Shown piece by piece: positions 21 through 57,823 of a stretch of DNA of 64,000 nucleotides. The stretch lies in the IMG/VR virus record IMGVR_UViG_3300049444_000130; one strand, 5' to 3'. The translations under genes and the position numbers were made by a program. The DNA comes from a virus. Lineage: Duplodnaviria > Heunggongvirae > Uroviricota > Caudoviricetes. The notes beneath the pieces were generated by a model, which was not told the origin of the DNA, made no database searches, and saw nothing but the letters and a program-made list of their open reading frames with translations. Positions within the stretch are counted from its first letter, which is position 1. The number at the start of each line of letters is the position of its first letter.

Positions 21-308
21 ATGTCGCTCCAGGACATCAACCGCTACACCGAGCGCATCATTGCGGAAGGCGTGGTCAGTCCCCGCTTCACCGATCAGCG
101 GGGGGATACCGGGAAGCCCATCTACGGCACGCATGCCATCCATGTGTCGATGCTGGATACCGCCGACCGGGACTTCCTGGCGACGGCGTTGTTTCAGAAG
201 CTGGGCTTAACAACGGGGGATGCCGTAGCAATCCATGCCTTTCGCGAGGACGAACAGCGCCAAAACGATCCGAGCGTTAGCCCAGGAGTATCAGTGCCTT
301 CCGAGTGA
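21..308 (+). CDS. hypothetical phage protein; possible tail assembly chaperone (upstream of tape measure)
   Basis: ORF immediately 5' of the tape measure gene, overlapped by a second ORF in another frame (235..480). Position matches gpG/gpGT-type chaperones. No motif recognised. Confidence 0.3.
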   Translation: MSLQDINRYTERIIAEGVVSPRFTDQRGDTGKPIYGTHAIHVSMLDTADRDFLATALFQKLGLTTGDAVAIHAFREDEQRQNDPSVSPGVSVPSE

Positions 309-480
309 CATCCTTAAGCGGTGCACCCCTGGAGACCTGTTACTCAACATGTTGATCACCTGGCCTGAGATGGCGCAGGGACAGACACCACGGAGAGAAC
401 GAGAGCCAGATAGTCCCAGTTTCACGGCGCTGCTACGGGAGTTACGGCGCGAGCGCAACGGCCACCAGACGGAGTGCTGA
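235..480 (+). CDS. overlapping ORF (+1 frame relative to 21..308); possible frameshift extension of the chaperone, or a separate small gene
   Basis: Overlaps 21..308 by 74 nt and ends 2 nt before the tape measure start. Positional analogy only. Confidence 0.2.
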   Translation: MPFARTNSAKTIRALAQEYQCLPSDILKRCTPGDLLLNMLITWPEMAQGQTPRREREPDSPSFTALLRELRRERNGHQTEC

Positions 481-481
481 G

Positions 482-3352
482 ATGGCGGACACCAATCCCA
501 AGATTACGCTGACCGCGCAAGACAATATGAGCGGCCCGCTGACGTCGATTGCAGCGGCCCTCAAGCGCTTGGAGACGGCGGGGGAAGAGAACCTCGCGTG
601 GGTGACCCAGCTCGCCGCTGGCTTTGGCGGTCAGCAACACGCTGCCGAGCAACTCAGTACGGCGCTCCAGGGCGTGCAGACGCAACTGGCAGCGGGCATC
701 ACGGCACAGCAAGCCAACGCCACTGCGACCCAGGGGGCCACCCAGGCACTGACGCAACAAACGCAAGCGGTCACCGCCACCGGCACCGCCTGGCAGTCCA
801 TCCTCAGCATCGCTGGAGGCGTCGGCATTGCCACCAGTATCAGCGCCATTGTCGGGCAGCTCAAGCAGTTTGTCAGCGAATCCGTGCAGCTCGCCATCAA
901 AATGCAATCCCTCACCGCCTCGTTCACGGCGATTACCGGGAGTAGTGCAGGGGCACAGCATGCCCTCGGGTTTTTGCGCAGCATTGCCGTCCAGACCGGC
1001 ACAGATTTCCTGACCCTCGCCCAGTCCTTTAAGAACTTTGAGGCGGCGGCGCGAGGCACAGCCCTAGAAGGCACGAAGGCCGAAGGCGTGTTCCGGGCCG
1101 TAACCGGCGCCGCCCGCGTCATGGGCCTGTCGAGTGCCGATACGGGCCGGGCCTTGCTCGCCCTGGAACAGATGGTGTCCAAGGGCACCGTGTCCATGGA
1201 GGAATTACGCCGGCAGTTGGGCAATGCCCTTCCCGGCGCCTTCCAGATTGCGGCCCGGGCCATGGGGACGACGACCGAAGGGCTCCAGGCCATGCTGAAG
1301 CAGGGCATCGAGAGCAGTGACTTTGTGACCCGCTTTGGTGCGCAACTGCAACGAGAATTTGGCCCGCGCCTAGCTGATGCCGGACAAACCGCCGCCGCCA
1401 CCTTTGGGCGCCTGGGCAATGAAGTGCAAGCGATGGCCACCAGCGTGGGGGCAAGCATCCTGACGATCTTGACCCCGGTAGCCAGCTTTCTCGAAAGCAC
1501 GCTGCGGAAGGTGCGGGAGACGGAAGAAGCGGCGACCCGACGGGCCAAGGTCGGGCTGGGTGGGATTCCCGAAGGCGCCACCGAGCAGGAAGCGGCACGC
1601 CTCCTTGAGTTACAGAAAAACCAAGATGCGCTGCGGGGGCGCATGGCAGGGGGAGGGCCATTCCCGCAATTTCAAGGGCTCACGGCGCAGCGAGAACAGG
1701 CCGAACTGCTTGCCATTCAAGAACAGATCAAAGCCCGTAAAGACCTCAATGCCACGTTCGCGCGGGATGTCGCCCCCTCGCCCCTGCCCGGCATCCCCTT
1801 TGCCACCGAAGCCCGCAACATTCAGAAAGAAGTCCAGACGCTCCGGGACGAACTGAAAGCCACCAATGTGCAGGCGCAGGTCTTCCCCGCCATGAGTCAG
1901 GACAAGCTCCAGAACGCCAAAGATACGCTGAAAATCCTCGAAACCAGCCTGGAGAAATTGGCTGAGCAGATCGCCCAGACCAAAGACAAAGCGCCGGGCG
2001 TGATGGAGGATCAGAAAAAGCTCCTCGCCACCTTGAACCAGGAATATGCCGAGGCCCTCGCCAATGTGACCAAACTGGAGGCCGCCAAAGAAGCGGAAAC
2101 CGAGGCCACCCGCAAAGCCGCACGGGAAGCCGAGAAGGCCGCGCGCGACAACGAACGGCGGACGCGCGACAGTGCCAAGCTCCTAGCGGAGATGGGCATT
2201 GCGGCCCGACTGGCGGACACCACCGCGCAGGCCGGCGGCGATCCCGAGGCCATGCAGGCCGCCAAGAATGCGGCGGAAGAAGCCACGCTGCGGCAGACCA
2301 TTGCGGAGAAGGGGCTGGGCGCCGCGGTGGAAGAAACGGCGGTCGCCTTTCTCCGCCAGAAGCAAGCTGCCGACGACAGCGCCGCCACGATCGCGGTCAT
2401 GGTCAAGGAGCAACGCGACCGTATCCAAGAGCTGGCCAAGGACCTCGATATCTTTGGCCTCAACCTCGCCCCAGACCAGGAGAAAGCCCTGGCCTTCAGC
2501 AAGAAAATCCAGGATGCCCTCGCCGTCGCCCAGGCCCCCAAAGAGGAACGTCCAGAAACCCGCCTCCGTGCCCTGGCCGGGAAAGAAGGCATCCCCCTCA
2601 GCCCTGCCGATGAAGCGGGCTTGCGTCAGCTCACTCTCACGCTCCAAGAACAGGCCCAGGCACGGGAGATGGAGAAGATTACCACACAGCTCGCGAACAA
2701 TATGCGGCAGACGTTTGACACGCTCTGGGAGCAGGTCTTTACGGGGGGCGTGACGTCCTTTCAGCAGCTCGGGCAAGTGGTGGTGCAGTCGCTCCAGCGT
2801 ATGTTTGCGCAGCTCACGGCGCAAATCATGAACATGCTCCTCAATGCGGCGTCCGGGACCATGGACGAGAAGGGCGGCTGGGAGGGAGCGCTCGCACGGG
2901 GGATTGTCGGCGTGGGGCTGGCAGCCCTGGGGGGCAGTGACTTTGGCTCCGATATCCCGGGCATGACGAATGATCCCGCGGTGATTGGGGATCTCCAGAG
3001 CCAGATAAATCTCCTGGGCACCAGCTCAGCGGGGGGCAATGTTTTTCCAGGGTTGGGCACCATTCGCATGCTGGCCGGGGGCGGCATTGTGAATCGCCCA
3101 AGTTTCACCACTATTGCCGAGATGGGCCAGCCCGAGGCCGTGGTCCCCTTGAGTGGTGGGCGGTCGATTCCCGTGGAAATGCGGGGACAGCAGCCTGCCG
3201 GGAATCAGCCCATCGTCATTGAAATTCACAACGATTACACCAATGCCGTCAGCCCGAGTGCACTCAAAACTGGGAAGAAAGAGATTATTCAACATTTTAT
3301 AAGCGACTACAACGCCGATGGGCCGACCCGTCGTACCATCAAGGCAGGATGA
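482..3352 (+). CDS. phage tail tape measure protein (TP901-family core region)
   Basis: 956 aa, Ala/Gln-rich and coiled-coil. Contains the conserved tape-measure core segment ALEQMVSKGTVSMEELRRQLGNALPGAFQIAARAMGTTTEGLQAMLKQG. Many nested out-of-frame ORFs on both strands are GC artefacts. Confidence 0.9.
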   Translation: MADTNPKITLTAQDNMSGPLTSIAAALKRLETAGEENLAWVTQLAAGFGGQQHAAEQLSTALQGVQTQLAAGITAQQANATATQGATQALTQQTQAVTATGTAWQSILSIAGGVGIATSISAIVGQLKQFVSESVQLAIKMQSLTASFTAITGSSAGAQHALGFLRSIAVQTGTDFLTLAQSFKNFEAAARGTALEGTKAEGVFRAVTGAARVMGLSSADTGRALLALEQMVSKGTVSMEELRRQLGNALPGAFQIAARAMGTTTEGLQAMLKQGIESSDFVTRFGAQLQREFGPRLADAGQTAAATFGRLGNEVQAMATSVGASILTILTPVASFLESTLRKVRETEEAATRRAKVGLGGIPEGATEQEAARLLELQKNQDALRGRMAGGGPFPQFQGLTAQREQAELLAIQEQIKARKDLNATFARDVAPSPLPGIPFATEARNIQKEVQTLRDELKATNVQAQVFPAMSQDKLQNAKDTLKILETSLEKLAEQIAQTKDKAPGVMEDQKKLLATLNQEYAEALANVTKLEAAKEAETEATRKAAREAEKAARDNERRTRDSAKLLAEMGIAARLADTTAQAGGDPEAMQAAKNAAEEATLRQTIAEKGLGAAVEETAVAFLRQKQAADDSAATIAVMVKEQRDRIQELAKDLDIFGLNLAPDQEKALAFSKKIQDALAVAQAPKEERPETRLRALAGKEGIPLSPADEAGLRQLTLTLQEQAQAREMEKITTQLANNMRQTFDTLWEQVFTGGVTSFQQLGQVVVQSLQRMFAQLTAQIMNMLLNAASGTMDEKGGWEGALARGIVGVGLAALGGSDFGSDIPGMTNDPAVIGDLQSQINLLGTSSAGGNVFPGLGTIRMLAGGGIVNRPSFTTIAEMGQPEAVVPLSGGRSIPVEMRGQQPAGNQPIVIEIHNDYTNAVSPSALKTGKKEIIQHFISDYNADGPTRRTIKAG

Positions 3353-3355
3353 GCC

Positions 3356-5158
3356 GTGAACCTGACCGAGCACCGTCACTTTGCCGATGAGCTGTATCTG
3401 AGTTTGCAGCGCTGCGAATCCGCCTATAACGTCCCCATCCTGCAATGGGACGCCACCACGGCCACGCAGCTCACCGGCATAGACGACGCCAGCGTGCACG
3501 AGCAGTGGAACGATACCCTCGTGGGCGCCGACGCCATCCGCCTAGGCTCCCGCCTCGCCGCCGTGCACGCCCTGGCCTTGCGCAGCATGCTACTCCCGGT
3601 CACCCTCCCCCGGGTCACGCTCCACGCCCTCACGGGCTTGCTGGGGTTGACGCTGGGCCAGGTGACGACCGTGCAACAACTGGTGCCGTTGGTCCCCAGC
3701 TATCGGCACCGGCTGACGCTGGCCCCGCCGACCCAGCTCCCGAGTATCAGTGCACAAATCGGGCATCTGCAGAACGTGTACGCGCTCTATGGCGGGATCA
3801 AGGGGGACAGCTTTACCCTCCAGAACAACAGCGCCTATCTCCGTCTGACCACCCAGCTTATCGGCGCGGGCAGCCGGGTCGAAAGTACGGGCACGTTCCC
3901 CCGGGCGCTGACGCTCCTCACGACGGGCACGCCCCCCGAGGCGCACCGGATCGCCGATGCGGCGGCAGGGGTGTGGTATGTCTCCCCGGATGGCACCGGC
4001 AGCCTGCTCATCGATACCGTGCCCCCAGCGGGTGTGAGTCTGAACGTGGGTACGGGCCTGACGTTGCGCAGTATTCCCGGCCCGCGCTACCGCCTCGGCG
4101 TGGGCACGGAGGGCAGCCTGGAACTGCCGGTCGTCAGCACCGCACCGGCGGGGCTCCTCGAAGTCGCAGCCCTGCGGGATGCGACGGGCACCACCTGGTA
4201 CCTGTGGATGGACGGCGACACGCTGACCCTGGATGTGACCCTGCCCCCGCCCGCGCTCGTGCCCCGGGAGGAGCCCGCGTTGCGCTGGGGGACGGGACGG
4301 ATCTGGCTGGCCGACGTCACGGACACGCCGGCGCCCATCCCCCTCTTTCTGACCCAGGGGGCGCCCAATATTGGCCCGGCGCCACTGGAGGTGTCCAGTC
4401 GCGTCGTGGGGCTCACGCTCACGGGGGAGAATCATCTGCTGGCGACCGACGCCTATCGCCTGGCCAGTGGCGCCGTGCGGAGTAATTTCCACGCCGCCCA
4501 CCAGGCCCTCACCGTGACCCTCCAGCTCGAAGTGGACCCGGCGCGGGAGGCCGCCGACCTCGCCGCCTATCTCGATCAGCGCCTCCTGGCCCTGGAGTGG
4601 CAGTGCCTGCAGGAGGCGGTGACCATCGTCCTGGTGACCGCGGGCACGCCGCCGCTGTGGCATCAGGTGACCGACAGCGGCGGGGGCACCTGGTATCTCG
4701 GGGTCGATGTCCTGGGAGAACTCACGGTGAGCGACACGTCCCCAGGCGGCAGTGGGCTGGTCGTCGGCACGGGGCTCCAGCTCCTGGCCCTCGACGGCTG
4801 GCGCTATCGCCTGGGGGTGGATGGGTTGGGACAGTATCTCCTGACCCAAACCACGTTGGTCGGCCCCACGCCGCCGCGCACGGAGATGGGTGCGCTCCGC
4901 GACCCCAGTGGCGGCACCTGGTACGTGTGGCCGGATGGGTTTGGGGGCGTGGAAGTCTCCGCCACACCCGTCCTGCCCTACTGGCACCACGGCTTTGCCT
5001 GGCTGTTTCCTCGGCTGCAATGGCGCGCCCTGGTGCGGTCGACGCAAGCGCAAATGGATATTCTCGAACTTACGGGCACGGTCGAGGAGACGCCGCCCGA
5101 GGAGCCCGTCGTGCTCGATGTGTGGAATGCCCAACCGGGCTATGTCCAACTGGCGTAG
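3356..5158 (+). CDS. phage tail protein with internal repeats (distal tail / tail-associated)
   Basis: GTG start 1 nt after the tape measure stop (TGA..GTG). 600 aa with four repeats of a GGTWY(L/V)W-DG...V(T/S) motif and two RYRLGV(G/D) segments. Location fits a Dit/Tal-like gene. Confidence 0.5.
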   Translation: MNLTEHRHFADELYLSLQRCESAYNVPILQWDATTATQLTGIDDASVHEQWNDTLVGADAIRLGSRLAAVHALALRSMLLPVTLPRVTLHALTGLLGLTLGQVTTVQQLVPLVPSYRHRLTLAPPTQLPSISAQIGHLQNVYALYGGIKGDSFTLQNNSAYLRLTTQLIGAGSRVESTGTFPRALTLLTTGTPPEAHRIADAAAGVWYVSPDGTGSLLIDTVPPAGVSLNVGTGLTLRSIPGPRYRLGVGTEGSLELPVVSTAPAGLLEVAALRDATGTTWYLWMDGDTLTLDVTLPPPALVPREEPALRWGTGRIWLADVTDTPAPIPLFLTQGAPNIGPAPLEVSSRVVGLTLTGENHLLATDAYRLASGAVRSNFHAAHQALTVTLQLEVDPAREAADLAAYLDQRLLALEWQCLQEAVTIVLVTAGTPPLWHQVTDSGGGTWYLGVDVLGELTVSDTSPGGSGLVVGTGLQLLALDGWRYRLGVDGLGQYLLTQTTLVGPTPPRTEMGALRDPSGGTWYVWPDGFGGVEVSATPVLPYWHHGFAWLFPRLQWRALVRSTQAQMDILELTGTVEETPPEEPVVLDVWNAQPGYVQLA

Positions 5159-21541: not shown

Positions 21542-22016
21542 GCCCTTCTGGCCGCACGCCCTGTGTCTGCTCCACGATCCAAGCCTAATCGGGCTGCATG
21601 TGCTGGCGGATGGGATGATCGCCCTGGCCTACTTCGCCATCCCGAGTGCGCTGGCCTATTTTGCGCTCAAGCGGCGGGTGTTCCCGTTTCGCGGCATCGT
21701 CCTCTGGTTTGCGGCGTTCACGGTGGCGTGTGGCCTGACCCATGTCGGGAATGTGGTGGAGATGTTTTCGCCGGCAGCCTATTGGATCACCGGCGCGGGG
21801 AAGCTGATCACGGCGGCGCTCTCGTGGTGGCTGTTGCGGCTCCTCCTCCCCGTGCTCCCCCAGATGCTGGCCCTGCCGGGCCTGGACCAATTGGACGAGG
21901 TGCGGCAGTGGATGAGCATGCCCGTCGGAGAGACCCTGCCGCAGATGCAGGCGGAGCTCGATAAACTGATCGACGTGCTGACGACGCTCACGCCTCCCAA
22001 AGCGCCCGAGAGGTAA
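21528..22016 (+). CDS. stand-alone ethylene-binding-domain (ETR1 N-terminal-like) membrane protein
   Basis: Three predicted TM helices. DGMIALAYFAIPSALAYFALKRRVFPFRGIVLWFAAFTVACGLTHVGNVV aligns almost residue-for-residue with ETR1 [50 protein letters not shown], including the Asp, the Tyr and the Cu-ligand Cys/His pair. There is no output domain. Confidence 0.6.
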   Translation: MTLPEPFWPHALCLLHDPSLIGLHVLADGMIALAYFAIPSALAYFALKRRVFPFRGIVLWFAAFTVACGLTHVGNVVEMFSPAAYWITGAGKLITAALSWWLLRLLLPVLPQMLALPGLDQLDEVRQWMSMPVGETLPQMQAELDKLIDVLTTLTPPKAPER

Positions 22017-22026
22017 AGGAGGGCGG

Positions 22027-22401
22027 ATGGGCGAAGCCCCACCACGCGGCCAGTTGGACCAACTGCGGCGCGACATGCAGGACACCACGACGAAGCTCGC
22101 GGATGTCGTGTATCAACTCCGCGATACGCTGCGCCAACAGCAGCATGTGGAAGAGGATATGCGGGAGACGCGGGCCGCCGTGCAGAGCATCCATCAGCTC
22201 CTCCAGGGCGGGGATCTGCCGCTGCTCACGCGGATGATCGTGGTCGAGGGGAAGGTGAAAGAGGTGGAAGCGAGCCAGTTCCGCAACCGCGATTGGTGGC
22301 TCAAAATCGCCGCGACCTTGACCACAGCGCTGATTGTCGCCATGGCGGGATTGCTGCTGGTGCTGTACGTCAGCACGAAAACCCCGCTGCCGAAGCCCTA
22401 G
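22027..22401 (+). CDS. coiled-coil protein with C-terminal TM anchor
   Basis: 124 aa: a coiled coil followed by WWLKIAATLTTALIVAMAGLLLVLYV. Confidence 0.4.
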   Translation: MGEAPPRGQLDQLRRDMQDTTTKLADVVYQLRDTLRQQQHVEEDMRETRAAVQSIHQLLQGGDLPLLTRMIVVEGKVKEVEASQFRNRDWWLKIAATLTTALIVAMAGLLLVLYVSTKTPLPKP

Positions 22402-22461
22402 GAGCGTATCCGATGTCTGCCGACTGTTTCCAACTTTCTCCATGCCACAAGGAGTGACGCT

Positions 22462-22953
22462 ATGCGTAACCGCCTTCTCCTCCTCATCTTGGCGCTCCTC
22501 GTGCTGCGCATTGGCACAGCACGAGCGCAAGTGACCGACACGAACACGGCCCCCGATGGCCGCACCACGACCCACAATATGGACTGCATGGGCAACATGT
22601 GGCTCTGGACGCAGTGGACCATCTTCACGGACGCGGGCCGGGGGGGCCGCCGCGTCATCCGGTTTGTGCAGGACTGCGTCTCCACCGAGGGGCACCCTTC
22701 GACGGCCAACCGGGACAACTGGCCCACCCTGACCCTCCGCGATGGCAACGTCAAGGCTATCTGGGTCGAGGGCTTCAGTCACTTTGCCCAGGCCATCCCC
22801 GGCGCTGTCGCCCAGTTCTGGCCGTTCCGCTTCGAGCAACGCGCCGACCGTATAGATTTTCCGGTCTTTACGGGCGATGAACCCGCGACAGACGAGCAGC
22901 ACGAGCAGACCAGCTACGCGAGCATCTATTTTTTCGCCAGCAGGCCCAGGTAA
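22462..22953 (+). CDS. secreted hypothetical protein
   Basis: Signal peptide MRNRLLLLILALLVLRIGTARAQ. 163 aa. Confidence 0.4.
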   Translation: MRNRLLLLILALLVLRIGTARAQVTDTNTAPDGRTTTHNMDCMGNMWLWTQWTIFTDAGRGGRRVIRFVQDCVSTEGHPSTANRDNWPTLTLRDGNVKAIWVEGFSHFAQAIPGAVAQFWPFRFEQRADRIDFPVFTGDEPATDEQHEQTSYASIYFFASRPR

Positions 22954-22996
22954 GGACCGTATCAACATCCCGACGCCGGAGGAAGGACGGTGCGCC

Positions 22997-23341
22997 ATGT
23001 CTGCCGACGCCCTCGGGAAGTGGATCATGGGCCTGGTCGCCACGCTGCTGGTGCTGGGCCTGGGGTCCTATATTGCCACGACGAATCGCCAGTTGGACGC
23101 GATGGAAAATCGGCTCGATGCCCTCACGGAGCGGCAAGGGGAAGTGCGGGAGCAGTTGCGGCATCTCGAAGTCGTGCTCCCGGAGATGACGGAGCGGCTG
23201 GCGGACCTGCGACGGGAGTGTCTGGCGCTCCAGGCGCGGGTGGTGCTCCTCGAAACGCAGGGTGTGGTGCTGGCGGAGCGGCTCCGGGTCCTCGACCAGC
23301 ACCACCAGGAAGGGTGGCGCCCACGTGAGGACGGGCCGTGA
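22997..23341 (+). CDS. membrane-anchored coiled-coil protein (N-terminal TM)
   Basis: MSADALGKWIMGLVATLLVLGLGSYIATT followed by a coiled coil. Same architecture as the 20978 gene. Confidence 0.4.
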   Translation: MSADALGKWIMGLVATLLVLGLGSYIATTNRQLDAMENRLDALTERQGEVREQLRHLEVVLPEMTERLADLRRECLALQARVVLLETQGVVLAERLRVLDQHHQEGWRPREDGP

Positions 23342-23730
23342 CGGCGCCCACGTTGGCGGAAATCGCCTACCGGGCCTGGTGTGCGCAGCAACCCCTACCG
23401 CAGCCGCTCTATAAGGCCCTCACGTTCGAGGAGAAACTGGGGTGGGCAGTCGGGGTACAGGAAGCCCTGGAGGCAGCGCTGACCGTCCCGGGCCTCCCCC
23501 CACCGCCGACTGTGGACCTGACGCAGACCATCACCCAGCTCCGTCAGGCCGTGCAGAGGGCGCTCCAGCCCCACGCGTACAGCCTCGCCCAGGCCAGCCG
23601 CGTCGTCGGGGTGAATCGGCGCACCCTCACACGCTGGCTGGCGGGAGAAGACAATTTGACGCTTCGCACGCTCCAACGACTGGAGACGTGGGTAGGGAAC
23701 AGGTGCCGAAAGCAAGACGATGGGCCTTGA
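23338..23730 (+). CDS. HTH DNA-binding protein
   Basis: C-terminal SLAQASRVVGVNRRTLTRWLAG helix-turn-helix. Confidence 0.4.
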   Translation: MTAPTLAEIAYRAWCAQQPLPQPLYKALTFEEKLGWAVGVQEALEAALTVPGLPPPPTVDLTQTITQLRQAVQRALQPHAYSLAQASRVVGVNRRTLTRWLAGEDNLTLRTLQRLETWVGNRCRKQDDGP

Positions 23731-24426
23731 GCCAAGCCTCAAGCTCGTCCCAGTAGCCAGACGGCCTGTCATCAGGGGTCGCATACCAGGCGTCCAGCAA
23801 CGCAAGGGCGGCAGCATTGGGCACGGCGGGCGGCTGCTGCAGTGTAGGGCCTGTTTCTGACATATATACTTCCTAACTCATTGGTTTTTCTGGCTTCACT
23901 GGCGCTGCAGATCTGGGGCTGGCACAGAAGACTCCTCAAGGGGAGGGCGGCGGTGCCGTACACAGGAGGAGCGCGAACAGGATGCAGGCGGTACACACCC
24001 CCAGATCCCCGGCCAGCCGTGCCACAGGATCATTGGCAAAGAACGCAAGCGGGGTCGCCCCACCCAGGAAGCCAACCGCCAAGGCCGCCACCCCACACCG
24101 CAGGCCCCCAATCAGCCTATGGGACATAGACAGGTCCTCTTGTGTGAAGCTCCCTCCCACCTAACCCTCGCCGGGCACGGGGTAAAGCACAGTGCTCTAC
24201 ATCCTCATTGGCAAAGAGCGGCTGCGGGGGTGGTGGTACTGACGGGAGGTTTCTCATTTTGACGTCCTTGTCACACTGGCCGGCCTCGCTGTGCTTCCAG
24301 TGGCAGCCAGAAACGCCTGAAGCAGCTCCAACGGAAACGGAAAGACGACGGTCGAATTCTGCTCAACGGCAATTTCCGCCAGGGTTTGGAGATAGCGGAG
24401 TTGGAGCGACATCGGATGCCGTCCCA

Positions 24427-25059
24427 TCACCTCAGCGGCTTCGGCGAGCCGAGTGGCCGCCTGGAATTCGCCATGGCGGCAATAATCTTGGCGCGGCGTT
24501 CGCGTTCGGCCTCGGCTTGCTTCGCCATCGCCCGCTGCATCTCCTGGGGTAAGTCAATATGTTTGACTTCGACCGCATCCACTTTGATGCCCCAGGGCTC
24601 CGTCCCCGCATCCAACATGCTTTGGAGCCGATGGTCAATCCTGTCAATTTGTGTCAACAAATCATCGAGCTCAAATTGCCCCAAAACACTACGCAAGACG
24701 GTTTGCGCTTTTTCATAGGTGGCGTCTTCAAAGTCTTCGACCGCGATCACCGCTTCTTTGGGGCTCGCCACATGAAAAAAGACAATCGCATGGACCTTGA
24801 GCGTAATATTGTCTTTGGTAATGATGTCTTGGGGGGGGATATCGAGCGTAATGACCTGCGTAGTAATCCGCGTCATGCGATCAATAACTGGGAGGAGAAG
24901 GACAATCCCGGGTCCTCGCACCGCCCGGAAGGTCCCGAGCCGCAGCACGACGCCGCGCTCCCACTCGCGCAAGATTTTCAGACTCATACATCCGAGTACC
25001 AGGAGCAGGAGGGGCAGGCCAAGACCAAGACTGAGCAGAAACATACACATGCCTTTCAT
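24427..25059 (-). CDS. SPFH/band-7 (stomatin/HflC-like) membrane protein
   Basis: N-terminal TM followed by [16 protein letters not shown]...PVIDRM...ITKDN...[17 protein letters not shown], the canonical SPFH domain. The start was chosen at MKGMCMF. The track ORF extends to 25239. Confidence 0.7.
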
Positions 25060-25103
25060 GGTTGCGGTTGTAGAAGGCGGTGGTACGCGCGGGAACCTAG
25101 CGC

Positions 25104-25472
25104 TTACACGGTGCTCGTCCCCTCGACCCCCCGACGCAGCCGCGCCTCGGTGCGCATGTGAAGCCAGTCCATGGCCATGATCACCGCGTCGAGGGCCTCG
25201 GCGTTCTCCTGACAGGCGTAGGGACCCGCTTGGAAACATGCCAATCGATCCCGCACCACCGCCAGGAGCGCCTCGTTCGAGACGCCGTTGGCACCCGCCT
25301 CCGCGATGGGGCCTTCCTGAAAATGGAGATCCCAGTGGAGCAGGTCGAGGCCATCACGAGGAATATGCAGATGATACTGATGGCACGCCCCACCGGCGCC
25401 CGGTTCGTCCAACACGGTGATCGTAATCGCCTCGTTCAGGCCCTTGACGGTATGCGTCGTAATGGTTCTCAT
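25104..25472 (-). CDS. hypothetical phage protein
   Basis: 122 aa ORF with GC3-rich codons and consistent spacing in the - strand operon. Confidence 0.35.
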
Positions 25473-25864
25473 AGGGGAAATTCCTCCTCGTCCTCGCTGC
25501 CATACTCCCTCTCTCCAGCCTCGTCATACCGATGACGCGCCGCCCGCTCCCCCGCCGTCAGTTGGGGCGGGAGATACACCGTCACGGGTTCGGTGCGGAT
25601 ACTGCGAGCCGCCGCCACGGCCAACTCCTCCGTGACCAGCGTCAGGTCAAAGATACTGCTCACCCCAATATAGCGGGTATAGGCGGGGTGCTCGTCCACG
25701 GCGGGGATATCCACCCGCAGGAGGGCACTGCCGCCCAGGAGTACGGTGGACACCCGGCCAGCGAGTTTCGTGTGGCCAAACTGGGAGACAATCGCCCAGC
25801 CGTCAATCGTGGTTGGTTCGTCAGACATGTTTTGCTCCTTGCTGCAAGCGTCGAGGGTCAACAT
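25469..25864 (-). CDS. hypothetical phage protein (acidic C-terminus)
   Basis: 131 aa. Overlaps its neighbours by 4 nt (operon coupling). Confidence 0.35.
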   Translation of the reverse strand: MLTLDACSKEQNMSDEPTTIDGWAIVSQFGHTKLAGRVSTVLLGGSALLRVDIPAVDEHPAYTRYIGVSSIFDLTLVTEELAVAAARSIRTEPVTVYLPPQLTAGERAARHRYDEAGEREYGSEDEEEFPL

Positions 25865-26271
25865 CAGCGCGGTGGCAGACTCGTCAACCGTGGCAGCTTC
25901 CGGCCATTAAAAGGCCGATGGGAAAAGCGCATCCCGGCCTTGGCCAGATTCCGCAAGAGATCGCCCATCCAGAGCTGTGTTTGCGTGCCAAAATCTTGCA
26001 ACTGGTGGAGCATATGCCCCGTGCCCAGGGCGAGCTGCTCCGCACGCGTTGGCCCCTGCTCCGCCGTCTTCAGCCGGAACCGAAAACCCAGCGGGAGAGT
26101 GTCATCCTCAATTATACAGTTCCAAGTAGTATAGACGGGATAGGTGAAGGCCGCCTCATGTTCGCTCACTAACATAATGGCCCCCGCCAGGTCGTATTCG
26201 CGGCAAATGATCTGGATCATGGCGAGCGCTTCCTGCAAGCGTGGGTCCTCTATCGGACGGTCATTTCTCAT
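25864..26271 (-). CDS. hypothetical protein; intact copy of a gene whose 5' end is duplicated at 27016..27168
   Basis: Starts MRNDRPIEDPRLQEALAMIQIICREYDLAGAIMLVSEHEAAF. A second diverged copy of this N-terminus lies upstream of the HNH gene. Confidence 0.45.
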   Translation of the reverse strand: MRNDRPIEDPRLQEALAMIQIICREYDLAGAIMLVSEHEAAFTYPVYTTWNCIIEDDTLPLGFRFRLKTAEQGPTRAEQLALGTGHMLHQLQDFGTQTQLWMGDLLRNLAKAGMRFSHRPFNGRKLPRLTSLPPR

Positions 26272-26906
26272 AAAGGCCCTTTTTCTTGAAGTAGGTGTTT
26301 CCAGGTATGCTCACAAACAATGTGGCTAATACATGACGGCCCACGTTGGTATTTTTCTTGGAGTGCCTTGACCGTCATGCCATTAAGCCGGTCTGCTCGA
26401 ATTGCTCGAACGACAGACTCTGTGAGTGTTGCACGGCCATTGCATTCACCTTGGGCAATCTCAGGATGGAGATGCATATAGTTATTCTCTGGCCGTCGAT
26501 AGCGATACATTTCTTCAGCCGGAAAAACACGACCCATTTGGATCGCATCAGCCATATTTTCTTTGGCTGTCCCTTGATATAAGTGCCTAATACACGCACG
26601 GATGAGACAAGGGGGCGTGTGGAGAACGAATTGCTTCCGCGACAAAGGTCCATAAAGCGCATCATAGAAAAACCGATGGGCATTTACAGAATGCCCCCTA
26701 TATGAAAAGGCGCCATAGCCATTGTTTAATGCCTGTGCCCATCCCGTACAACGCTCCTCCCAGGGATGGCATGCACAAGCTGCCTGCATGGTAACTTGCT
26801 GCCAAAAACGCATCACGACATTAGAGGAATAGCGACGCCGCATGAGGGCACGCATTTTTTCGAGCTGTGAAAAATCAAAAAGTGTGGGATGCTCTGCGGA
26901 TGCCAT
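26268..26906 (-). CDS. HNH homing endonuclease (HNH_3/AP2-like)
   Basis: GYGAFSYRGHSVNAHRFFYDALYGPL...HTPPCLIRACIRHLYQGTAKENMADA. Low GC relative to its surroundings. The stop overlaps the downstream gene start. Confidence 0.7.
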   Translation of the reverse strand: MASAEHPTLFDFSQLEKMRALMRRRYSSNVVMRFWQQVTMQAACACHPWEERCTGWAQALNNGYGAFSYRGHSVNAHRFFYDALYGPLSRKQFVLHTPPCLIRACIRHLYQGTAKENMADAIQMGRVFPAEEMYRYRRPENNYMHLHPEIAQGECNGRATLTESVVRAIRADRLNGMTVKALQEKYQRGPSCISHIVCEHTWKHLLQEKGPL

Positions 26907-27015
26907 GGCACTGTACCTCGCATGTACGGTGGTATGGGAGTGTCTGGTGGTGCTCGATACACCACCAGAACATAAAACGCTGTAATTATATCACATCTCA
27001 TTGATTTTTCAACAC

Positions 27016-27168
27016 TTATTCCACAAAGAACAGTTGGTACCCAAACGCCGCCTCCTCCTCGTTGACCAGCATCACGGCACAGGCCAGGTCTTGCTCCCGG
27101 GCCAGGGCCAGCACCGCGTCGAGGGCCGCCTGGAGGCGGGGGTCGTCTATCGGTCGATCATTCCTCAT
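27016..27168 (-). pseudogene. 5' fragment (about 46 codons) of a paralogue of gene 25864..26271
   Basis: MRNDRPIDDPRLQAALDAVLALAREQDLACAVMLVNEEEAAF then diverges and stops. The nucleotide similarity covers the start region (..tctatcggtcgatcattcctcat vs ..tctatcggacggtcatttctcat). Confidence 0.5.
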
Positions 27169-27357
27169 CGTGGTCCCTTTCGTGCGGCACTGCCGCCGCA
27201 TTCCGACACACCGCCTCGACCGTCGCATGCCAGCGGCAGTAGCGCCGCGGCGCTTTGTGGGGGCGCGTGCCGCGCTGGTCAATCGCCCAGCGCTGGTGGC
27301 TGGGCGTGTAATAGACGCCATGCGTGGCATCGTGCAGGCAGCCCGCGTGGCAGCACC

Positions 27358-28041
27358 TCATGGCGGAGGCACCTTCTCGAGGGGCACCAGCACCAGGGCG
27401 CGTTGCGTCATCGCGTGCAAGGCGCGGGTGGCTACCGGGCCTTCCTCGCGGGCCATCGCTTCGAGGATCGGCAGTCCTGACTCGATGGCCGCCAGGACCT
27501 CTGCCCGTATCGCGTCGCGTCCCTCGCAGTACCAGGCAATGGACGTGGGCTCCCCCAGCGCAAAGAGCACCCCGCCGCCTGGGACCGCAAACGGACGCAC
27601 CCGCCGACTCGTCCAGAGACAGCACACGCCCGGATTGCGTTTCAGGCCAACGCCAGCGGCCTCAACGACGGTATCGGGCAGGTGTCCGTCGCGGCGGACC
27701 ATATGGGGGCGTGCGAGAAACGGGCAGGCTTGGGCGGCATACTGCGCACAGTCGAGATGCGAGGGCGGTTCCGCAATGGTGCGGTTGATGGCACACATGG
27801 GACCAATCACCGACGTGAGATAGCGCCCCAAGACCTCGCCACAGATCCAGCACCGATGTTCGTCACAGGCGCGCTGCATCTTCTCGGGCTCGATGATGCG
27901 GAAGTCCGGTACCCCGTCAATCCAGGCGACGAACCACGGGACGGGAAATCCGCGTGGGTCCAACGGCAAACGCGCAATGCGCGCGGGTCGTTCCACATCT
28001 GCAAGAGACGGATGGAGGGGTGGGAGCGTCATTGGAGTCAT
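27358..28041 (-). CDS. hypothetical Cys-rich protein
   Basis: The start at MTPMTL is preceded by an AGAGG RBS. 228 aa. No family recognised. Confidence 0.4.
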   Translation of the reverse strand: MTPMTLPPLHPSLADVERPARIARLPLDPRGFPVPWFVAWIDGVPDFRIIEPEKMQRACDEHRCWICGEVLGRYLTSVIGPMCAINRTIAEPPSHLDCAQYAAQACPFLARPHMVRRDGHLPDTVVEAAGVGLKRNPGVCCLWTSRRVRPFAVPGGGVLFALGEPTSIAWYCEGRDAIRAEVLAAIESGLPILEAMAREEGPVATRALHAMTQRALVLVPLEKVPPP

Positions 28042-28112
28042 ACGTACCTCTTTCTTTTGCACAGGCCATTGGTGTCCACACGGCAGCTTACAACCCCGCA
28101 CGAGACGCAGTA

Positions 28113-28856
28113 TTAGCGTACTTCCCGATCCAGATGCCGACATCGCGGACATCCTTTGAGTTCCCATTTGTCCTTCGCCAGGGCGTCCGCATAGGTCTGC
28201 CACTGAAGATTCTCTACCGCATCTTTCCCTCCGCAAGCGAGGGCGTCAACATGATCACGGATATACCCCGGGCACTTCCCGGTCGTCTTCCCCGTACTGG
28301 GGCAGGGGTGCAGCCGTTGAAAGGCGCGCAACACCGCCTGGGAGCGCGGAATCACCGGGCAGGTAGCCTGGCTGGGGGCGGCCAGGGCGACCAGGAGGAG
28401 CGGTACGAACAGCCAACTCTTCAAGGTCCCGGCCCCTAAAAACGTCAGTTGACCAGCGGCTTCCCGTTGGAGGCGCCGCGTTTCGGCCCGGTGCTGACTG
28501 TGCAATACCCCATCAGTGCGGAGGTGACAGCGGTTGCACATGGCTTTGACATGGGCCGCTTCGACACAGGGGGGATCACAAGAACAGAGATGCGCCACCG
28601 TCAACACCACGCGCCCCCGAGCCCACTGGGCCGGCTGCTGATCGCGCTCGACACACCGTCGAGGGCCAGGATGCGTGCGATGCAAGCCACACTCCCCACA
28701 ACATTCGCATTGACCCAGCGCCCGCTCAAACCGAATGGCCCGGGAAAACACCTTCCAGGTGGGAGGATACGTCAATCGAGGGCGGCGCATACGGCCTCCG
28801 TGTTGGCCCCAGCACCTGCCAGGGCCGTAGAGAGGAATAAGTGTCCCAAGTGCCAT
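28113..28856 (-). CDS. HNH nuclease domain protein (zinc-ribbon N-terminus, internal signal-peptide-like segment, canonical C-terminal HNH)
   Basis: N-terminal CECCGECG...CNRCH zinc ribbon. An internal MKSWLFVPLLLVALAAPSQA-like segment (TTG codon). C-terminal RDHVDALACGGKDAVENLQWQ...CPRCRH, which is a DH-GG-N-CxxCxH HNH motif. This may be two genes. The first 236 codons of the track ORF are judged spurious. Confidence 0.45.
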   Translation of the reverse strand: MALGTLIPLYGPGRCWGQHGGRMRRPRLTYPPTWKVFSRAIRFERALGQCECCGECGLHRTHPGPRRCVERDQQPAQWARGRVVLTVAHLCSCDPPCVEAAHVKAMCNRCHLRTDGVLHSQHRAETRRLQREAAGQLTFLGAGTLKSWLFVPLLLVALAAPSQATCPVIPRSQAVLRAFQRLHPCPSTGKTTGKCPGYIRDHVDALACGGKDAVENLQWQTYADALAKDKWELKGCPRCRHLDREVR

Positions 28857-28989
28857 TTCTAGGCCTCTGCAAGCGCCGTCAAGCCACGATCTTTTTCCAC
28901 ACTTCAAAGTACGCACGTGGGGGCTCCAACGTCTCCTTGCCTGATCTCTCACGCAAAAAACGGCATGCCTGTCCTGTCTCTCTTCTTGC

Positions 28990-30252
28990 TCACTCCTGGG
29001 CCGCGTCGAGGATGTCGAGCACCGCGCTCGCCAACTGCTCCGCCTCGTCCGCCGTGGCGGGTTCGACTGTCGACAGCGCAGACCGGATCTGCTCCAGCAT
29101 CTCGCTGGGGAGATGGGCATCGTCTTGGTGCGTGCGCAACGTCTCCCACGCCCGGCCTTCGGTGGGAGGCGCAGCCGTCGCCCCTGCCTTGGAGACCACC
29201 CAGGCGCTCTGCGTGCCGTCCTGGGGCTGCTGGGGACCTTCCTGGGCGGTTCCTGACGTGCCCCCGCCATCGCCAAACAGATCGGCATGCGCTTGCGCGG
29301 CAGACGCCCGCACCGCCCGCTGCACCTCCGCGACCACGGTGGGCGCGTCCCACTTGACCCCGGCCCGGGTGGCAATGTCCACCACCTGCCCCGCCACGGC
29401 CAGCCGATCCTCGTCCAAGAACGGCAGGTCATTGGCCCGCAACGGCTCGCCGAACACCGCCAGAATGGCTTGGACTTGCGTCGAGGCCCGTAAGCCCCGC
29501 AACCAGGTCCGCAGGGGAGCCAGCAGCGCTTGACGTTCGGCATCCTCGTCGCGCTGGTCTTCATCGGGATCGCCTAGCTGGGCAAACATCTCACTCACCA
29601 GCGGCAGGGCTTTCACGGCGGCGCTTTTGGCCCGTTTGACCGCCATCTGCAACACCGTGGCTTCCACGTCGGCCAGGTCGTCATTGTCCAGGCGGTAGCG
29701 GGTATAGGTGCCCGAGCGGCCCTGACTTTCTCGTTGCTTCAGGCTGGTCTTGTCCACGCCCTTGGGGACCTGGTTGCCCCCCACCCAGCGATACGCATAC
29801 TTGCTCTCACGGGTCGAACAACTGCCGGTGCCGGCGCCCATCGGCTGGCCGGAGTGGGAGGAGATCAGTCGCACGGTGGCGCGGCACATATAAAAGCCGT
29901 CCTCACGGCTCTCATAGATCGTCGGTTCATCCGGGTAACACTGGAACAGGGACATCAGGTTGTGAATGCCGTCCTGATTCAAGGCCGGCTTCTGCCCCTC
30001 GGCACTCATGGCGGCCAACGCCTCGGGGGTCAGCGGGGTATAGCGATTATTGGCAAAGCTGTAGAAATGGCGCTTGGGGTCCATATGCTTCTGCACGTAT
30101 TCGAGAAGCACCGGGCGAAACTCGGTCATCCAGGCCATGTGCTGCTTGATCTCCGCGATACTGCGCAGCGAGGACACCGGAGCCGCCACGACAAGGGCGG
30201 TGGCATCGGTATGGATCGGGACCAAAGCACGGGTATCGGTCGCCATGGTCAA
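28990..30252 (-). CDS. Erf-family-like ssDNA annealing recombinase
   Basis: PKRHFYSFANNRYTPL resembles the P22 Erf PKNQYNSFGKYKYRS motif. GTGSCSTRESKYAYRWV resembles GSAxTYARRY. It has an acidic C-terminal tail. Confidence 0.4.
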   Translation of the reverse strand: MTMATDTRALVPIHTDATALVVAAPVSSLRSIAEIKQHMAWMTEFRPVLLEYVQKHMDPKRHFYSFANNRYTPLTPEALAAMSAEGQKPALNQDGIHNLMSLFQCYPDEPTIYESREDGFYMCRATVRLISSHSGQPMGAGTGSCSTRESKYAYRWVGGNQVPKGVDKTSLKQRESQGRSGTYTRYRLDNDDLADVEATVLQMAVKRAKSAAVKALPLVSEMFAQLGDPDEDQRDEDAERQALLAPLRTWLRGLRASTQVQAILAVFGEPLRANDLPFLDEDRLAVAGQVVDIATRAGVKWDAPTVVAEVQRAVRASAAQAHADLFGDGGGTSGTAQEGPQQPQDGTQSAWVVSKAGATAAPPTEGRAWETLRTHQDDAHLPSEMLEQIRSALSTVEPATADEAEQLASAVLDILDAAQE

Positions 30253-30563
30253 CCCCTTTCAGGTGTGGTAGACTGAGAGTGACACTGTACACGTTCGGCA
30301 TCGATCTCCCTGGGACTCCCGGAATGGGTCCCAGGGCCTTCCTCCGCCGCCATCCGCACCTCCAGCCGCACAGACGGCGGCGTCTCGTCCGTGCAGACGG
30401 TCATATCCTCGGCCAACAGGTTCACCAGGCGGCGCGGGGTCTGCACTTTGATGGGGCAGGCCGCGTACCCCTGGTCTTCCAGGTCCAGCAGCAGCGCGAT
30501 CAGGTCATGCACGGTCATCAGGTTCCTCCTCTCGACACACATGATCCTCACCAAAGACGCCAC
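30249..30563 (-). CDS. hypothetical protein
   Basis: 104 aa ORF in operon register. Confidence 0.3.
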   Translation of the reverse strand: MASLVRIMCVERRNLMTVHDLIALLLDLEDQGYAACPIKVQTPRRLVNLLAEDMTVCTDETPPSVRLEVRMAAEEGPGTHSGSPREIDAERVQCHSQSTTPERG

Positions 30564-30674
30564 TCACTTGCTTCCCCAGCTCGCGCCAGTGCGGCGGGTC
30601 CTCTTTCGACGTCCCGTGGACCCACACCCGCGTCAGCACTAGGGCACCACAAGGGCAGGGGGTGAAGGCGGTCG

Positions 30675-31100
30675 TCATGCGGCGGCTCCTTCGCGCCGGG
30701 GTGGGACATCGGCCAGGCAGGTGAAGCCCTCCACCGTGCGTGTCTCCCAGCGCTGACGATAGGCATCAGGCGCTCGCTGGTAGGCCGCCTGGGCAATGGT
30801 CTCCCGTTGCTGCGCCATCATCTTTCGCGCACGCCACCAGGGCAGCGGTGCGCCGGTCTCGGGGTCCACCATGCCGGCGTACTGCGTCATCAGGGCGGCG
30901 ATCCAGTGCACGATATCATCCACGAGGTCTGGGCGGCGCTTGTCTGCGTCCCGGCTCTCCACGTAGAACAGCCGGAGATGGGCGCGGAGGACATCACATC
31001 CGTTTTCGTCATTCCCCACATTGGCGGCAATGGCCATCTGATGGGCACTACGGACCTGGGGATCCCGGTCGGCACACCAGGGACAATCGTTCGCGGTCAT
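30675..31100 (-). CDS. hypothetical protein
   Basis: 141 aa ORF. Confidence 0.3.
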   Translation of the reverse strand: MTANDCPWCADRDPQVRSAHQMAIAANVGNDENGCDVLRAHLRLFYVESRDADKRRPDLVDDIVHWIAALMTQYAGMVDPETGAPLPWWRARKMMAQQRETIAQAAYQRAPDAYRQRWETRTVEGFTCLADVPPRREGAAA

Positions 31101-56557: not shown

Positions 56558-57823
56558 ATGGGTACGCAACGACACAGGGTTGGGTGGGTGGTCTTGTTCC
56601 TCTTGGTGCCTTCCCTCGTCTCCGCCGATCTCTTCGACACGGCGCGCCAGGCCATCCGCACCGATGTAGGTCGGGCCGATAGCAGTGGTGTGAGCGTGCG
56701 CGGCGGGGCGGCGATCACCTCGGGCGTCACGGCGACCAGCGTGCCGCTCTTGCGGGGACAGCTCACCACCGGCGGCGGCTGCGGCGCGTTCTCGTTTGCG
56801 ACCAGCCTCACGCAAGTTTTCGAGGAAGTGCCGGAGTTACTCGAGGCCCTCGCCCAACAACTCGCGAATAACCTCCCCATGTTGGTGTTGTCGTATGCCT
56901 GCCCGACGTGCGTCGATCTGGTGAAGCATGTGCAAGCCCTCTCGAATGTGCTCGTGAACGCCCGCTTTGCCCAGTGCCAGGCGATGACCGCGGCGGCGCA
57001 GTATGGGGGCATGCGATTACGCGGTGGGGAAATTAGCCAGTGCCTGTCCGATGAGGTGGCCGCCGGCCATGGGATCAGCGCCGCCTTACGGACCTGCAAT
57101 GGCGACGTGACCGACGTGCGCTCGCCGACGGGCCGCCGGGCGCCCCGGGTCGAGGTGCTGGCCGAGACCCTGGACGCGGCAGGGGCCTCGCCTGAAACGC
57201 GCACCCTGGCCAAGAGCCTGCTGGGGGAACTCACGATGAGCGCCAACGGGGGGCAGCTTGGGACGCAGCAAGACCGGCCCAGTGCTGGGATGCTCGCGCG
57301 CTATGAGGCGAACCGGCTGGCCGCCGACACGGCATTACGCACCGCGATCGAGGAGCTGAAGACGACGGGCCAGGTGTCTGATGCGACCTTACGCGCGGTC
57401 TCAGTGCCCGGCCAACCGCTCCCCCGGGCGGCCCTGGATGCCCTCGTCGCCCTCCAGCAGGACCCCACGCGCTACGAGACGCTCCTCGGCAAGCTGAGTA
57501 CCGGGCTGGCCGTGACCCAGCTCACCTGGGAATGTGACGATCTCAAGAGCCAGCTCGCCGGATCAATCGAGAGCAATCAGGAGCTGACAGACGAGCAACG
57601 GCGCCTCCTCGAACGACGCTTAGAAGCCTTGGAGCGGGATCTGAAGCAGGTCATTGCCAAGAAAGACATAGTTGAAAAACACCTGCAACCCGCCTTGGAC
57701 GCGCTCTTGCAGGAGTACCAGGCGGTGCAGAGTGTGGCAACCCAAGCCGGATTCCGGGCGCCGGCGAAAGTGGGACCTGTGATGCCCTATCGGACACAGG
57801 GGCCAGGCGGATACGGGCAATAA
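56558..57823 (+). CDS. traH: TraH-like T4SS protein
   Basis: Signal peptide. GGGCGAFSFATSL parallels F TraH AGCGGIDAYLGSFSF. C-terminal coiled coil. Confidence 0.5.
   Translation: MGTQRHRVGWVVLFLLVPSLVSADLFDTARQAIRTDVGRADSSGVSVRGGAAITSGVTATSVPLLRGQLTTGGGCGAFSFATSLTQVFEEVPELLEALAQQLANNLPMLVLSYACPTCVDLVKHVQALSNVLVNARFAQCQAMTAAAQYGGMRLRGGEISQCLSDEVAAGHGISAALRTCNGDVTDVRSPTGRRAPRVEVLAETLDAAGASPETRTLAKSLLGELTMSANGGQLGTQQDRPSAGMLARYEANRLAADTALRTAIEELKTTGQVSDATLRAVSVPGQPLPRAALDALVALQQDPTRYETLLGKLSTGLAVTQLTWECDDLKSQLAGSIESNQELTDEQRRLLERRLEALERDLKQVIAKKDIVEKHLQPALDALLQEYQAVQSVATQAGFRAPAKVGPVMPYRTQGPGGYGQ

Follow-up and report, generated by a model that had tools for sequence, protein, structure and literature searches.

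A probable homing-endonuclease cassette in tailed phages that carries a replacement 5' end for the gene it interrupts

Introduction

On the usual view, free-standing homing endonucleases of phages pass only between closely related phages that have flanking genes in common. Here we describe a locus in a 64,000-nucleotide (nt) stretch of a tailed phage (Caudoviricetes; IMG/VR record IMGVR_UViG_3300049444_000130), the whole of which is referred to below as the window and which encodes a tape measure protein and beta-helix tail fibre proteins. In the region under study (25864..27361, minus strand), an HNH-type endonuclease gene is placed between an intact gene for a 135-amino-acid (aa) protein and a 5' remnant of a diverged allele of the same gene. 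We interpret positions 27017..26119 (about 0.9 kb, minus strand) as a mobile homing-endonuclease cassette inserted in the 135-aa gene between codons 51 and 52, and assign to this reading a probability of about 0.78.

Among phages, the best comparison is with the free-standing homing endonuclease genes (HEGs) of T4, where intronless homing was described for SegF, SegG, SegB and MobE (PMC2988022, PMC2330249, PMC2790892) and hairpins sequestering the ribosome-binding site (RBS) are documented (PMC2988022). Like these, the element described here is free-standing, with neither intron nor intein, shows presence/absence polymorphism in related phages and co-conversion of flanking markers, has a structured leader predicted to sequester the RBS, and probably has its conserved coding target beside its own gene. 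The T4 type, however, is intergenic and draws its homology from syntenic neighbours, whereas the cassette lies inside its target open reading frame (ORF), duplicates 51 codons and has both homology arms in one gene, an arrangement that would permit transfer between phages with unrelated neighbours.

The closest precedent, by analogy, is the mORF of fungal mitochondria, of which we consider the phage cassette an analogue and not a homologous member. In Glomus, endonuclease ORFs carry a foreign C-terminal portion of atp6, atp9, cox2 or nad3, and the native C-terminus is kept downstream as a duplicate (PMC3630166); an Allomyces macrogynus atp6 mORF is cited in the same paper. In both systems the endonuclease ORF would move together with a foreign gene end that becomes fused to the rest of the gene as a hybrid, expression of the phage hybrid being predicted, and a diverged native end lies beside the endonuclease (approximately 64–81% nt identity in the fungi and 65% in the phage). 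The phage cassette differs in that the replaced end is the 5' one, with the remnant upstream (in the fungal elements it is the 3' one, with the remnant downstream); its nuclease is of the HNH type and not LAGLIDADG or GIY-YIG; its host is a bacteriophage and not a mitochondrion; and its nuclease is a separate ORF and not an in-frame fusion. As the start of the gene is displaced, the phage cassette needs, and has, a putative promoter and translation signals of its own.

A third system, mobE in nrdA of Aeromonas phage Aeh1, is a case of genes-in-pieces (Friedrich et al. 2007, as cited in PMC8351571 and PMC2988022). As far as those citing papers describe it, it shares with the cassette an HNH HEG inside a phage protein-coding gene without intron or intein, but the Aeh1 pieces are complementary and both needed, whereas the upstream piece left by the cassette is redundant and the full gene is restored. 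Duplication is not mentioned in the review of T4 mobile elements (PMC2988022); a survey of Skunavirus HNH genes reported truncated HNH genes, not duplicated target segments; and a study of ICP1 placed nucleases at recombination boundaries without the architecture of the cassette. No earlier description of such a cassette in phages was found in the open-access literature consulted, although an earlier account is possible.

Results

Architecture of the locus

The earlier note on this DNA, made from the letters alone, had reported an HNH gene between an intact gene and a 5' fragment of it. All three ORFs were confirmed on the minus strand, with the correction that the fragment has 50 codons and a stop, not 46 codons. 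The features are as follows, in the direction of transcription.

27158..27361, minus strand: 67-aa Cys-rich ORF, the resident upstream gene; it ends with its stop codon 11 nt into the fragment ORF (ATGAGGAATGA)
27016..27168, minus strand: short remnant ORF, 50 codons and stop; 5' remnant of the 135-aa gene, clade B type
26907..27017, minus strand: AT-rich spacer (GC 0.45), the left end of the cassette, with stops, promoter and structured leader
26985..27012, minus strand: promoter-like site, TTGAAA-16-TATAAT with TG extension; a consensus match, function predicted
26944..26968, minus strand: leader hairpin 1, 9 bp, CTGGTGGTG-N7-CACCACCAG, conserved
26903..26937, minus strand: leader hairpin 2; in the predicted fold it encloses the Shine-Dalgarno (SD) sequence GAGG (26919..26916) and base-pairs with the start codon of the HNH gene (26906)
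26268..26906, minus strand: HNH-type endonuclease gene, 212 aa, matching PHROG HNH families
26527..26591, minus strand: 65-nt HNH segment deleted in contig L003, with CGTGT microhomology
26119..26271, minus strand: codons 1–51 of the intact 135-aa gene, clade A type; putative replacement 5' segment
25864..26118, minus strand: codons 52–135 and stop of the intact gene; right-hand homology arm, in which resident and co-converted shares are not separable in the window

The ATG of the remnant ORF falls within the 3' end of the 67-aa gene, an AT-rich gap of 109 nt separates the remnant ORF from the HNH gene, and the HNH ORF and the intact gene (26271..25864) share an ATGA overlap. GC content drops from about 0.68 to 0.36–0.56 over 27060..26110. 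Contigs from at least six samples carry this arrangement at 100% identity, and it is therefore not an assembly artefact.

Remnant and intact protein align without gaps at 28 of 42 aa (29 of 47 over the longer span) and at 86 of 126 nt, in agreement with the identity of about 60% given in the earlier note; 22 of the 40 nt differences are at third codon positions. The in-frame homology ends at codon 47 (…GYQLF), past which a 2-nt deletion is followed by DNA homology as far as TGGAAT (codons 50–51, 27023..27018), so that the junction of remnant and cassette lies between 27018 and 27017. A profile of the N-terminal part of the family retrieves the remnant at E 4.7e-23 against 5.8 billion proteins. 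The remnant is of clade B (…LAREQDLACAVMLVNE.EAAFGYQLF…), with 41 of 47 aa identical to the family proteins P0050 and P0054, and the intact copy is of clade A (…ICREYDLAGAIMLVSEHEAAFTYP…). Judged by these matches, the remnant is a genuine N-terminal piece of the 135-aa gene family, from another allele clade than the intact copy.

Sister cassettes in unrelated phages

The sole close homolog of the HNH protein among the 5.8 billion proteins was P0075 (72% aa identity) on contig L008. Its gene is directly upstream of that of P0054, the clade B gene closest to the window remnant, and is itself preceded by a 53-aa ORF that corresponds to a clade A N-terminus ending in …YTTWNKY and a stop. L008 is thus reciprocal to the window: remnant A, HNH, intact B against remnant B, HNH, intact A. 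The window remnant shares 77% nt identity with the 5' part of the L008 intact gene, and codons 1–51 of the window intact gene share 76% nt (81–82% aa) identity with the L008 remnant, i.e. 76–77% between N-parts of the same type across the two loci, against 54–65% for pairs of different type. A search with the N-terminal profile recovered a third cassette, on contig L013, with a clade B remnant (…YTMFNNH and a stop), an HNH gene for 206 aa and the intact gene P0048, whose N-terminus belongs to a third type, designated D.

In all three loci (3/3) the remnant ends after codon 51 (AAT), and directly past the junction in-frame stops follow in a shared sequence, AA(G/A/T)(T/C)(G/A)TTGAAAAA(T/A)CAA(T/C)GAGAT(G/A)TGATA(T/G)AAT. 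The spacer is 76–84% identical in nt across the three cassettes, above the value for the HNH coding sequence. Homology between the three loci spans only the distance from the remnant ATG to the stop codon of the intact gene; their flanks are unrelated at the DNA and protein levels, and the 67-aa upstream gene of the window has no homolog in L008 or L013.

We surveyed the family in metagenome and viral contig collections and in contigs looked up singly, about 45 independent loci altogether. Three of them, those of the window phage, L008 and L013, contain a second N-part together with the HNH gene and the spacer motif. In about 40, found in the search for phages with the uninterrupted gene that had been proposed as a check, a single N-part is directly joined to its own C-part, and neither an HNH gene nor a remnant with this junction occurs in any of these (0/~40). 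The boundary of codons 51|52 in the uninterrupted alleles reads …ACNACNTGGAAY|…GARGAY. The element therefore shows presence/absence polymorphism at one fixed site in homologous target genes, and has spread independently of the phage backbone. Two full-length copies were found in no locus of the survey; two such paralogues without HNH-associated truncation had been named beforehand as the arrangement contrary to a homing account. Viral, metagenome and genome contigs were also scanned for the HNH specifically, in collections that apparently lack the window's own samples, and no locus was confirmed.

The target gene family

The 135-aa family has 74 members from metagenomic phages, nearly all of 133–139 aa and without an annotated domain. 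For the 135-aa protein, Pfam, NCBIfam and PHROG gave no family match; AlphaFold predicts its structure with confidence (pLDDT 88.5), and structure comparison found no fold relative. No member was present among 185,579 bacterial and archaeal genomes, and there is hence no prophage or host clue; 50,697 GenBank phage records contained no match to the DNA of the 5.6-kb region or to the 135-aa protein. Identity in the N-part of the family poorly predicts identity in the C-part (r about 0.2), and in a two-parent scan 17 of 70 sequences appear recombinant. Approximately 10 of the 17 apparent breakpoints lie at residues 40–59, with a peak at 50–54; the scan had no formal null model and its detection power varies along the sequence, and we treat this clustering as suggestive. 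It is compatible with repeated endonuclease-associated exchange at the cassette site.

Three loci of the family are described here in their own right. On L015 (383..1156; Logan SRR24204732_1239343) the family gene is interrupted after codon 53, at a distance of two codons from the cassette site, by an unrelated insert of about 435 nt without HNH or a duplicated 5' part, and the C-terminal part has its own ATG. A decayed cassette was ruled out for this insert, which has no HNH or N-part similarity; from what the citing papers say of Aeh1, it is L015 and not the window that resembles the split-gene state of mobE/nrdA. A sub-threshold match to HgcC RNA (42.5 bits; gathering score 50) lies at the start of the insert (526..632, minus strand), and a second HgcC-like match is found at L013 3298..3420 (+). 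L014 (3396..3530; ENA ERZ27250609 k141_23946) carries a truncated N-terminal remnant of 44 aa with homology to about residue 38, directly followed by an unrelated ORF and by no HNH gene before the contig ends, which may reflect a different truncation or replacement event. On L025, an uninterrupted family gene is followed after about 270 nt by a distant homolog of the cassette HNH (3678..4208, minus strand; 68 bits), which is encoded on the other strand and may be another endonuclease associated with the family.

Resident and imported segments

The direction of the replacement can be read most directly in L013. A 653-bp contig, L016, carries an uninterrupted gene (P0050) and is an empty-site relative of L013: its positions 1–340 (upstream flank and codons 1–51) are co-linear with L013 5808–6154 (flank and remnant), and its codons from 27 to the end align with the L013 intact gene. 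Over the 5' part, L016 is identical to the L013 remnant at 127 of 153 nt, versus 101 of 153 for the 5' part of the L013 intact gene. In agreement with a homing account, L016 thus shares the upstream flank of L013 and matches its remnant and 3' part, and the 51 codons at the 5' end of the L013 intact gene are foreign to it.

The protein P0048 is correspondingly chimeric. Its C-part is 90% identical to that of P0050 (79% for the next-best family member), whereas its N-part is up to 82% identical to other neighbours (e.g. P0046), the C-parts of which reach only 64–69% with its own; the N-part of P0050, in turn, is 84% identical to the L013 remnant and 69% to the N-part of P0048. The best two-parent breakpoint in P0048 is at residues 59–62, from which we deduce that co-conversion reached a short way past the insertion point on its 3' side. 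Base composition in L013 follows the same division.

Intact-gene codons 1–51: GC 0.49, GC at third codon positions (GC3) 0.51
HNH gene: GC 0.48, GC3 0.41
Intact-gene 3' part: GC 0.60, GC3 0.74

Since the empty-site contig, the chimera test and composition agree, we take the remnant and the codons from about 60 onwards to be resident in L013, and the spacer, the HNH gene and codons 1 to about 51–60 to be imported, as judged from sequence comparison.

In the window, total GC of the intact gene rises from 0.54 to 0.60 exactly at codon 51. The import of codons 1–51 is directly visible only in L013 and would apply to the window by analogy; in the window, co-conversion may extend over a large share of the 3' part or the whole of it. 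The window remnant is probably the resident piece, considering the analogy with L013, its resident-like GC3 (0.78–0.83) and the fact that it overlaps the stop codon of the unrelated gene upstream.

The HNH gene and protein

The HNH label of the earlier note is upheld by matches of the 212-aa protein to PHROG HNH/endonuclease families (E 1.2e-11 to 1.3e-8), by alignment with PF13392-carrying homologs (E 2.5e-11 to 4e-6, 31–34% identity) and by a conserved core, VLHxPPCxxRxCxRHLYxGTxxxNxxD, in which H96, H108, N117 and D120 are invariant in the clade down to 36% identity. A profile search returned 47,697 relatives at E <= 1e-3, and only 9 cluster representatives at E <= 1e-30. The protein resembles the HNH_3 (I-HmuI-like, PF13392) group in its N-terminal GYG…AHR segment, its H…N ββα-metal core and a C-terminal helix-turn-helix-like module (LT..V..IR…W.H), but falls below the Pfam threshold, has VLHTPPCLIRACIRHL as its core where HNH_3 has HxCDNxxCxNPxHL, and carries a 23-residue insert before the DNA-binding module.

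As had been noticed from the sequence, the HNH gene is richer in AT than its surroundings (GC 0.487 and GC3 0.43, versus 0.63–0.68 and 0.75–0.81 in the neighbouring genes). The three HNH genes (window 26268..26906; L008 5158..5778; L013 6271..6891) are equidistant (72–73% aa, 72–75% nt) and share the same composition, GC 0.48–0.49 and GC3 about 0.41–0.43, in hosts with GC of 0.59–0.63. Pairwise dN/dS values are 0.10–0.16, the ratio being approximate because dS is saturated, and indicate long-term selection on a functional protein. The composition of the HNH genes has not drifted toward that of any host despite the saturated synonymous divergence, which suggests frequent transfer or a compositional constraint.

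In the population of the window phage, contig L003 (4254..4827 region) has a frameshifting deletion of 65 nt, by which the catalytic core (…RHLYQGTAKENMAD…) is lost, and outside the deletion is 99.97–100% identical to the window phage. Such dispensability and decay are expected of a selfish endonuclease once fixed.

A second free-standing HNH gene lies elsewhere in the window (57943..58563, plus strand; 206 aa; PHROG 826 at E 1.2e-29). It is strongly AT-rich (GC 0.46 versus 0.64–0.66 in its flanks), intergenic between ORFs 56558..57823 and 58566..60026, and preceded by a TAGAAT-like box and a GC-rich hairpin. Flanking duplication was looked for around this gene and none was detected; it fits the classical intergenic free-standing HEG class.

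The left end of the cassette

The promoter-like site matches the sigma-70 consensus at 11 of 12 positions, is the sole such site in 1.8 kb and occurs at the same position in L008 (TTGAAA-16-TAGAAT) and L013 (TTGAAA…TATAAT); it probably acts as a promoter. Hairpin 1 shows one compensatory change in L013, from G-C to A-U, and a 23-nt core of hairpin 2, CACCGTACATG(C/T)GAGGTACAGTG, is nearly invariant across the three cassettes. In the folding model, the two-hairpin leader would make both the start codon and the ribosome-binding site of the HNH gene inaccessible.

The antisense strand of the leader (window 26890..26985, plus strand) folds better than the sense strand (-39.8 versus -25.7 kcal/mol), as each C·A mismatch of the sense strand is a G·U pair in the antisense. 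Full-length but sub-threshold matches to the cis-antisense antitoxin RNA SymR (gathering score 61) were obtained in the two sister cassettes.

L013 6199..6276, minus strand: SymR-like antisense stretch, 38.6 bits
L008 5089..5163, minus strand: SymR-like antisense stretch, 31.9 bits

The window copy of this region gave no SymR score, and neither an antisense promoter nor a U-tract was found. It is conceivable, if unlikely, that a SymR-like cis-antisense RNA over the start codon restrains the endonuclease.

Discussion

Proposed mechanism

From 5' to 3', the proposed cassette would consist of stop codons, a sigma-70-like promoter, the two-hairpin leader, the HNH gene and replacement codons 1–51. 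Its insertion would strand resident codons 1–51 upstream as the remnant ORF (27168..27016), the truncated frame being terminated by the stops at the cassette start, and would join the imported codons 1–51 to the resident 3' part, giving an intact hybrid gene expressed from the cassette promoter. The HNH protein, a nuclease to judge by its conserved core, would cut cassette-free alleles near the conserved YTTWN/xVxED-coding sequence, a cut site near codon 51 being predicted from the position of the junction. The left end of the break would then pair with the donor remnant (codons 1–51) and the right end with donor codons 52–135, and repair synthesis would copy spacer, HNH gene and donor codons 1–51. 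With both homology arms inside the target gene, the cassette could enter any phage that has the gene, whatever its neighbours. This model accounts for the identical junction at three loci and for transfer between unrelated backbones, and equally for a remnant of the recipient allele type, the chimeric L013 gene with its co-conversion of adjacent target, and the need of the cassette for its own promoter.

The earlier note had proposed homing from a related phage with co-converted flanking sequence, the 5' part of the resident allele being left behind. The recurrence of the same cassette and junction in L008 and L013 sustains homing and the resident remnant; what gives way is incidental co-conversion around an intergenic HEG, in place of which we find a discrete cassette, with promoter, leader and codons 1–51, at codon 51|52. 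For the same reasons (insertion inside the ORF at 51|52, a 51-codon duplication, unrelated neighbours) the element falls outside the classical intergenic HEG class. An intron- or intein-borne HEG was ruled out as well: no intron family was detected in window 22000..31000, L008 or L013, and the HNH gene is a separate ORF after the stops, with its own SD sequence and ATG.

Several observations weigh against the proposed mechanism. Only three cassettes are known. For the window, no empty-site relative was found in GenBank phage records or in viral contigs searched via the upstream 201-aa neighbour; chimerism was not detected in its intact gene, both halves of which are clade A-like (best two-parent gain 5), and this gene has no GC3 step at codon 51 (0.686 versus 0.694). 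The HNH label of the 212-aa protein finds no support in Pfam or NCBIfam (no match at E <= 0.1), the protein has no PDB sequence match, and its core is atypical, PPC replacing CDN and the NP being absent. The hybrid allele ought to be immune to the nuclease, yet the hybrid gene regenerates the full target sequence, and immunity would have to come from substitutions near the junction; unusual residues there in the three hybrid alleles (CII, TSYN and IVIQD) are suggestive only. Finally, the 5' allele types of the cassettes differ (A, B and D; 57–61% nt) though their HNH genes are 72–75% identical in nt, and a strictly co-travelling 5' segment would therefore need faster evolution or at least one secondary replacement. 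Such a replacement could proceed in two steps, gene conversion from remnant to 5' part and then homing into an allele of another type, and would at the same time give rise to the reciprocal pattern of the window and L008.

Alternative explanations

The mobile unit could instead consist of the remnant codons 1–51, the spacer and the HNH gene, placed directly upstream of an intact gene that is wholly resident. Owing to the duplication, either description of the sequence is a circular permutation of the other, and the window intact gene, clade A-like throughout and with even GC3 across codon 51, speaks for this explanation. In L013, however, it is the remnant that is co-linear with the resident flank of L016 (83% nt identity versus 66% for the intact 5' part), the intact 5' part that has cassette-like GC, and the intact protein that is chimeric, while in the window the start of the remnant overlaps the stop codon of an unrelated upstream gene. 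A unit of this kind would also have a single homology arm and would require illegitimate joining each time, yet the junction is identical at three loci; we regard this explanation as quite unlikely. It is very unlikely that we are dealing with ordinary mosaic module replacement, in which the HNH gene would be a passive passenger, or share an operon with the 135-aa gene, and would not itself bring about insertion. The family is indeed highly mosaic, as its low N/C correlation (about 0.2) reveals, its gene contexts vary widely between phages, and the nuclease activity of the HNH protein is deduced from sequence. Against passive carriage stand the constant association of HNH and duplication (3/3 cassettes, 0/~40 uninterrupted loci), the identical insertion point within a highly conserved coding motif, the purifying selection on an HNH gene that the L003 deletion shows to be dispensable, and a strong compositional foreignness that persists in three hosts.

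Two homologous N-termini in tandem on the same strand might finally point to a local tandem duplication, with decay of the upstream copy and, as an unrelated event, insertion of an HNH gene between the two. The copies, however, belong to different clades, and each is closer to genes of other phages than to its genome-mate; no surveyed locus retains the two full-length copies from which such a history would start; and the truncation falls on exactly the same base as the HNH junction in three backbones that are unrelated and differ in their allele pairs. This last explanation we consider extremely improbable. The homing cassette remains the reading that we prefer.

Other features near the cassettes

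In the precomputed contig annotation, the product of 25104..25472 (minus strand), two genes downstream of the 135-aa gene of the window, is assigned to PF24729 (Acb2_Tad1_hairpin), which has an anti-CBASS/Thoeris sponge fold; our Pfam scan gave no match at E <= 0.1, and PHROG 2428, a family of unknown function, matched at E 7.6e-28. A Band_7/SPFH gene (24427..25239) comes next, and these genes may belong to an accessory or anti-defence island. In L013, an IS605 OrfB/TnpB (Cas12f1-like) gene (36..1169, plus strand) lies about 5 kb upstream of the cassette.

Significance

The delivered N-type differs from the displaced one in every case: A in place of B in the window, B in place of A in L008 and D in place of B in L013, with the old type retained next to it as a putatively silent copy. 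It is conceivable, if unlikely, that the cassette is more than a parasite and serves as a vehicle for swapping a hypervariable N-terminal module, with HEG-driven replacement possibly advantageous if that module sets specificity. The 135-aa protein might then be, for example, a host-interaction or anti-defence protein near the Acb2/Tad1-like gene.

Irrespective of that, the proposed cassette would be a way round the need for shared flanks: its homology arms lie inside one small conserved gene, which would be left functional, so that the element could hop between phages that share nothing else, as in the three unrelated backbones. It would be a phage counterpart, at the 5' end, of the mitochondrial mORF hybrids, and the analogy suggests that the strategy of carrying one's own replacement gene end arose independently in different nuclease families. 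Through spurious short ORFs and chimeric alleles, remnants of this kind would mislead the annotation and phylogeny of phages, and the cassette provides an HNH clade that is open to experiment and for which a target site is predicted.

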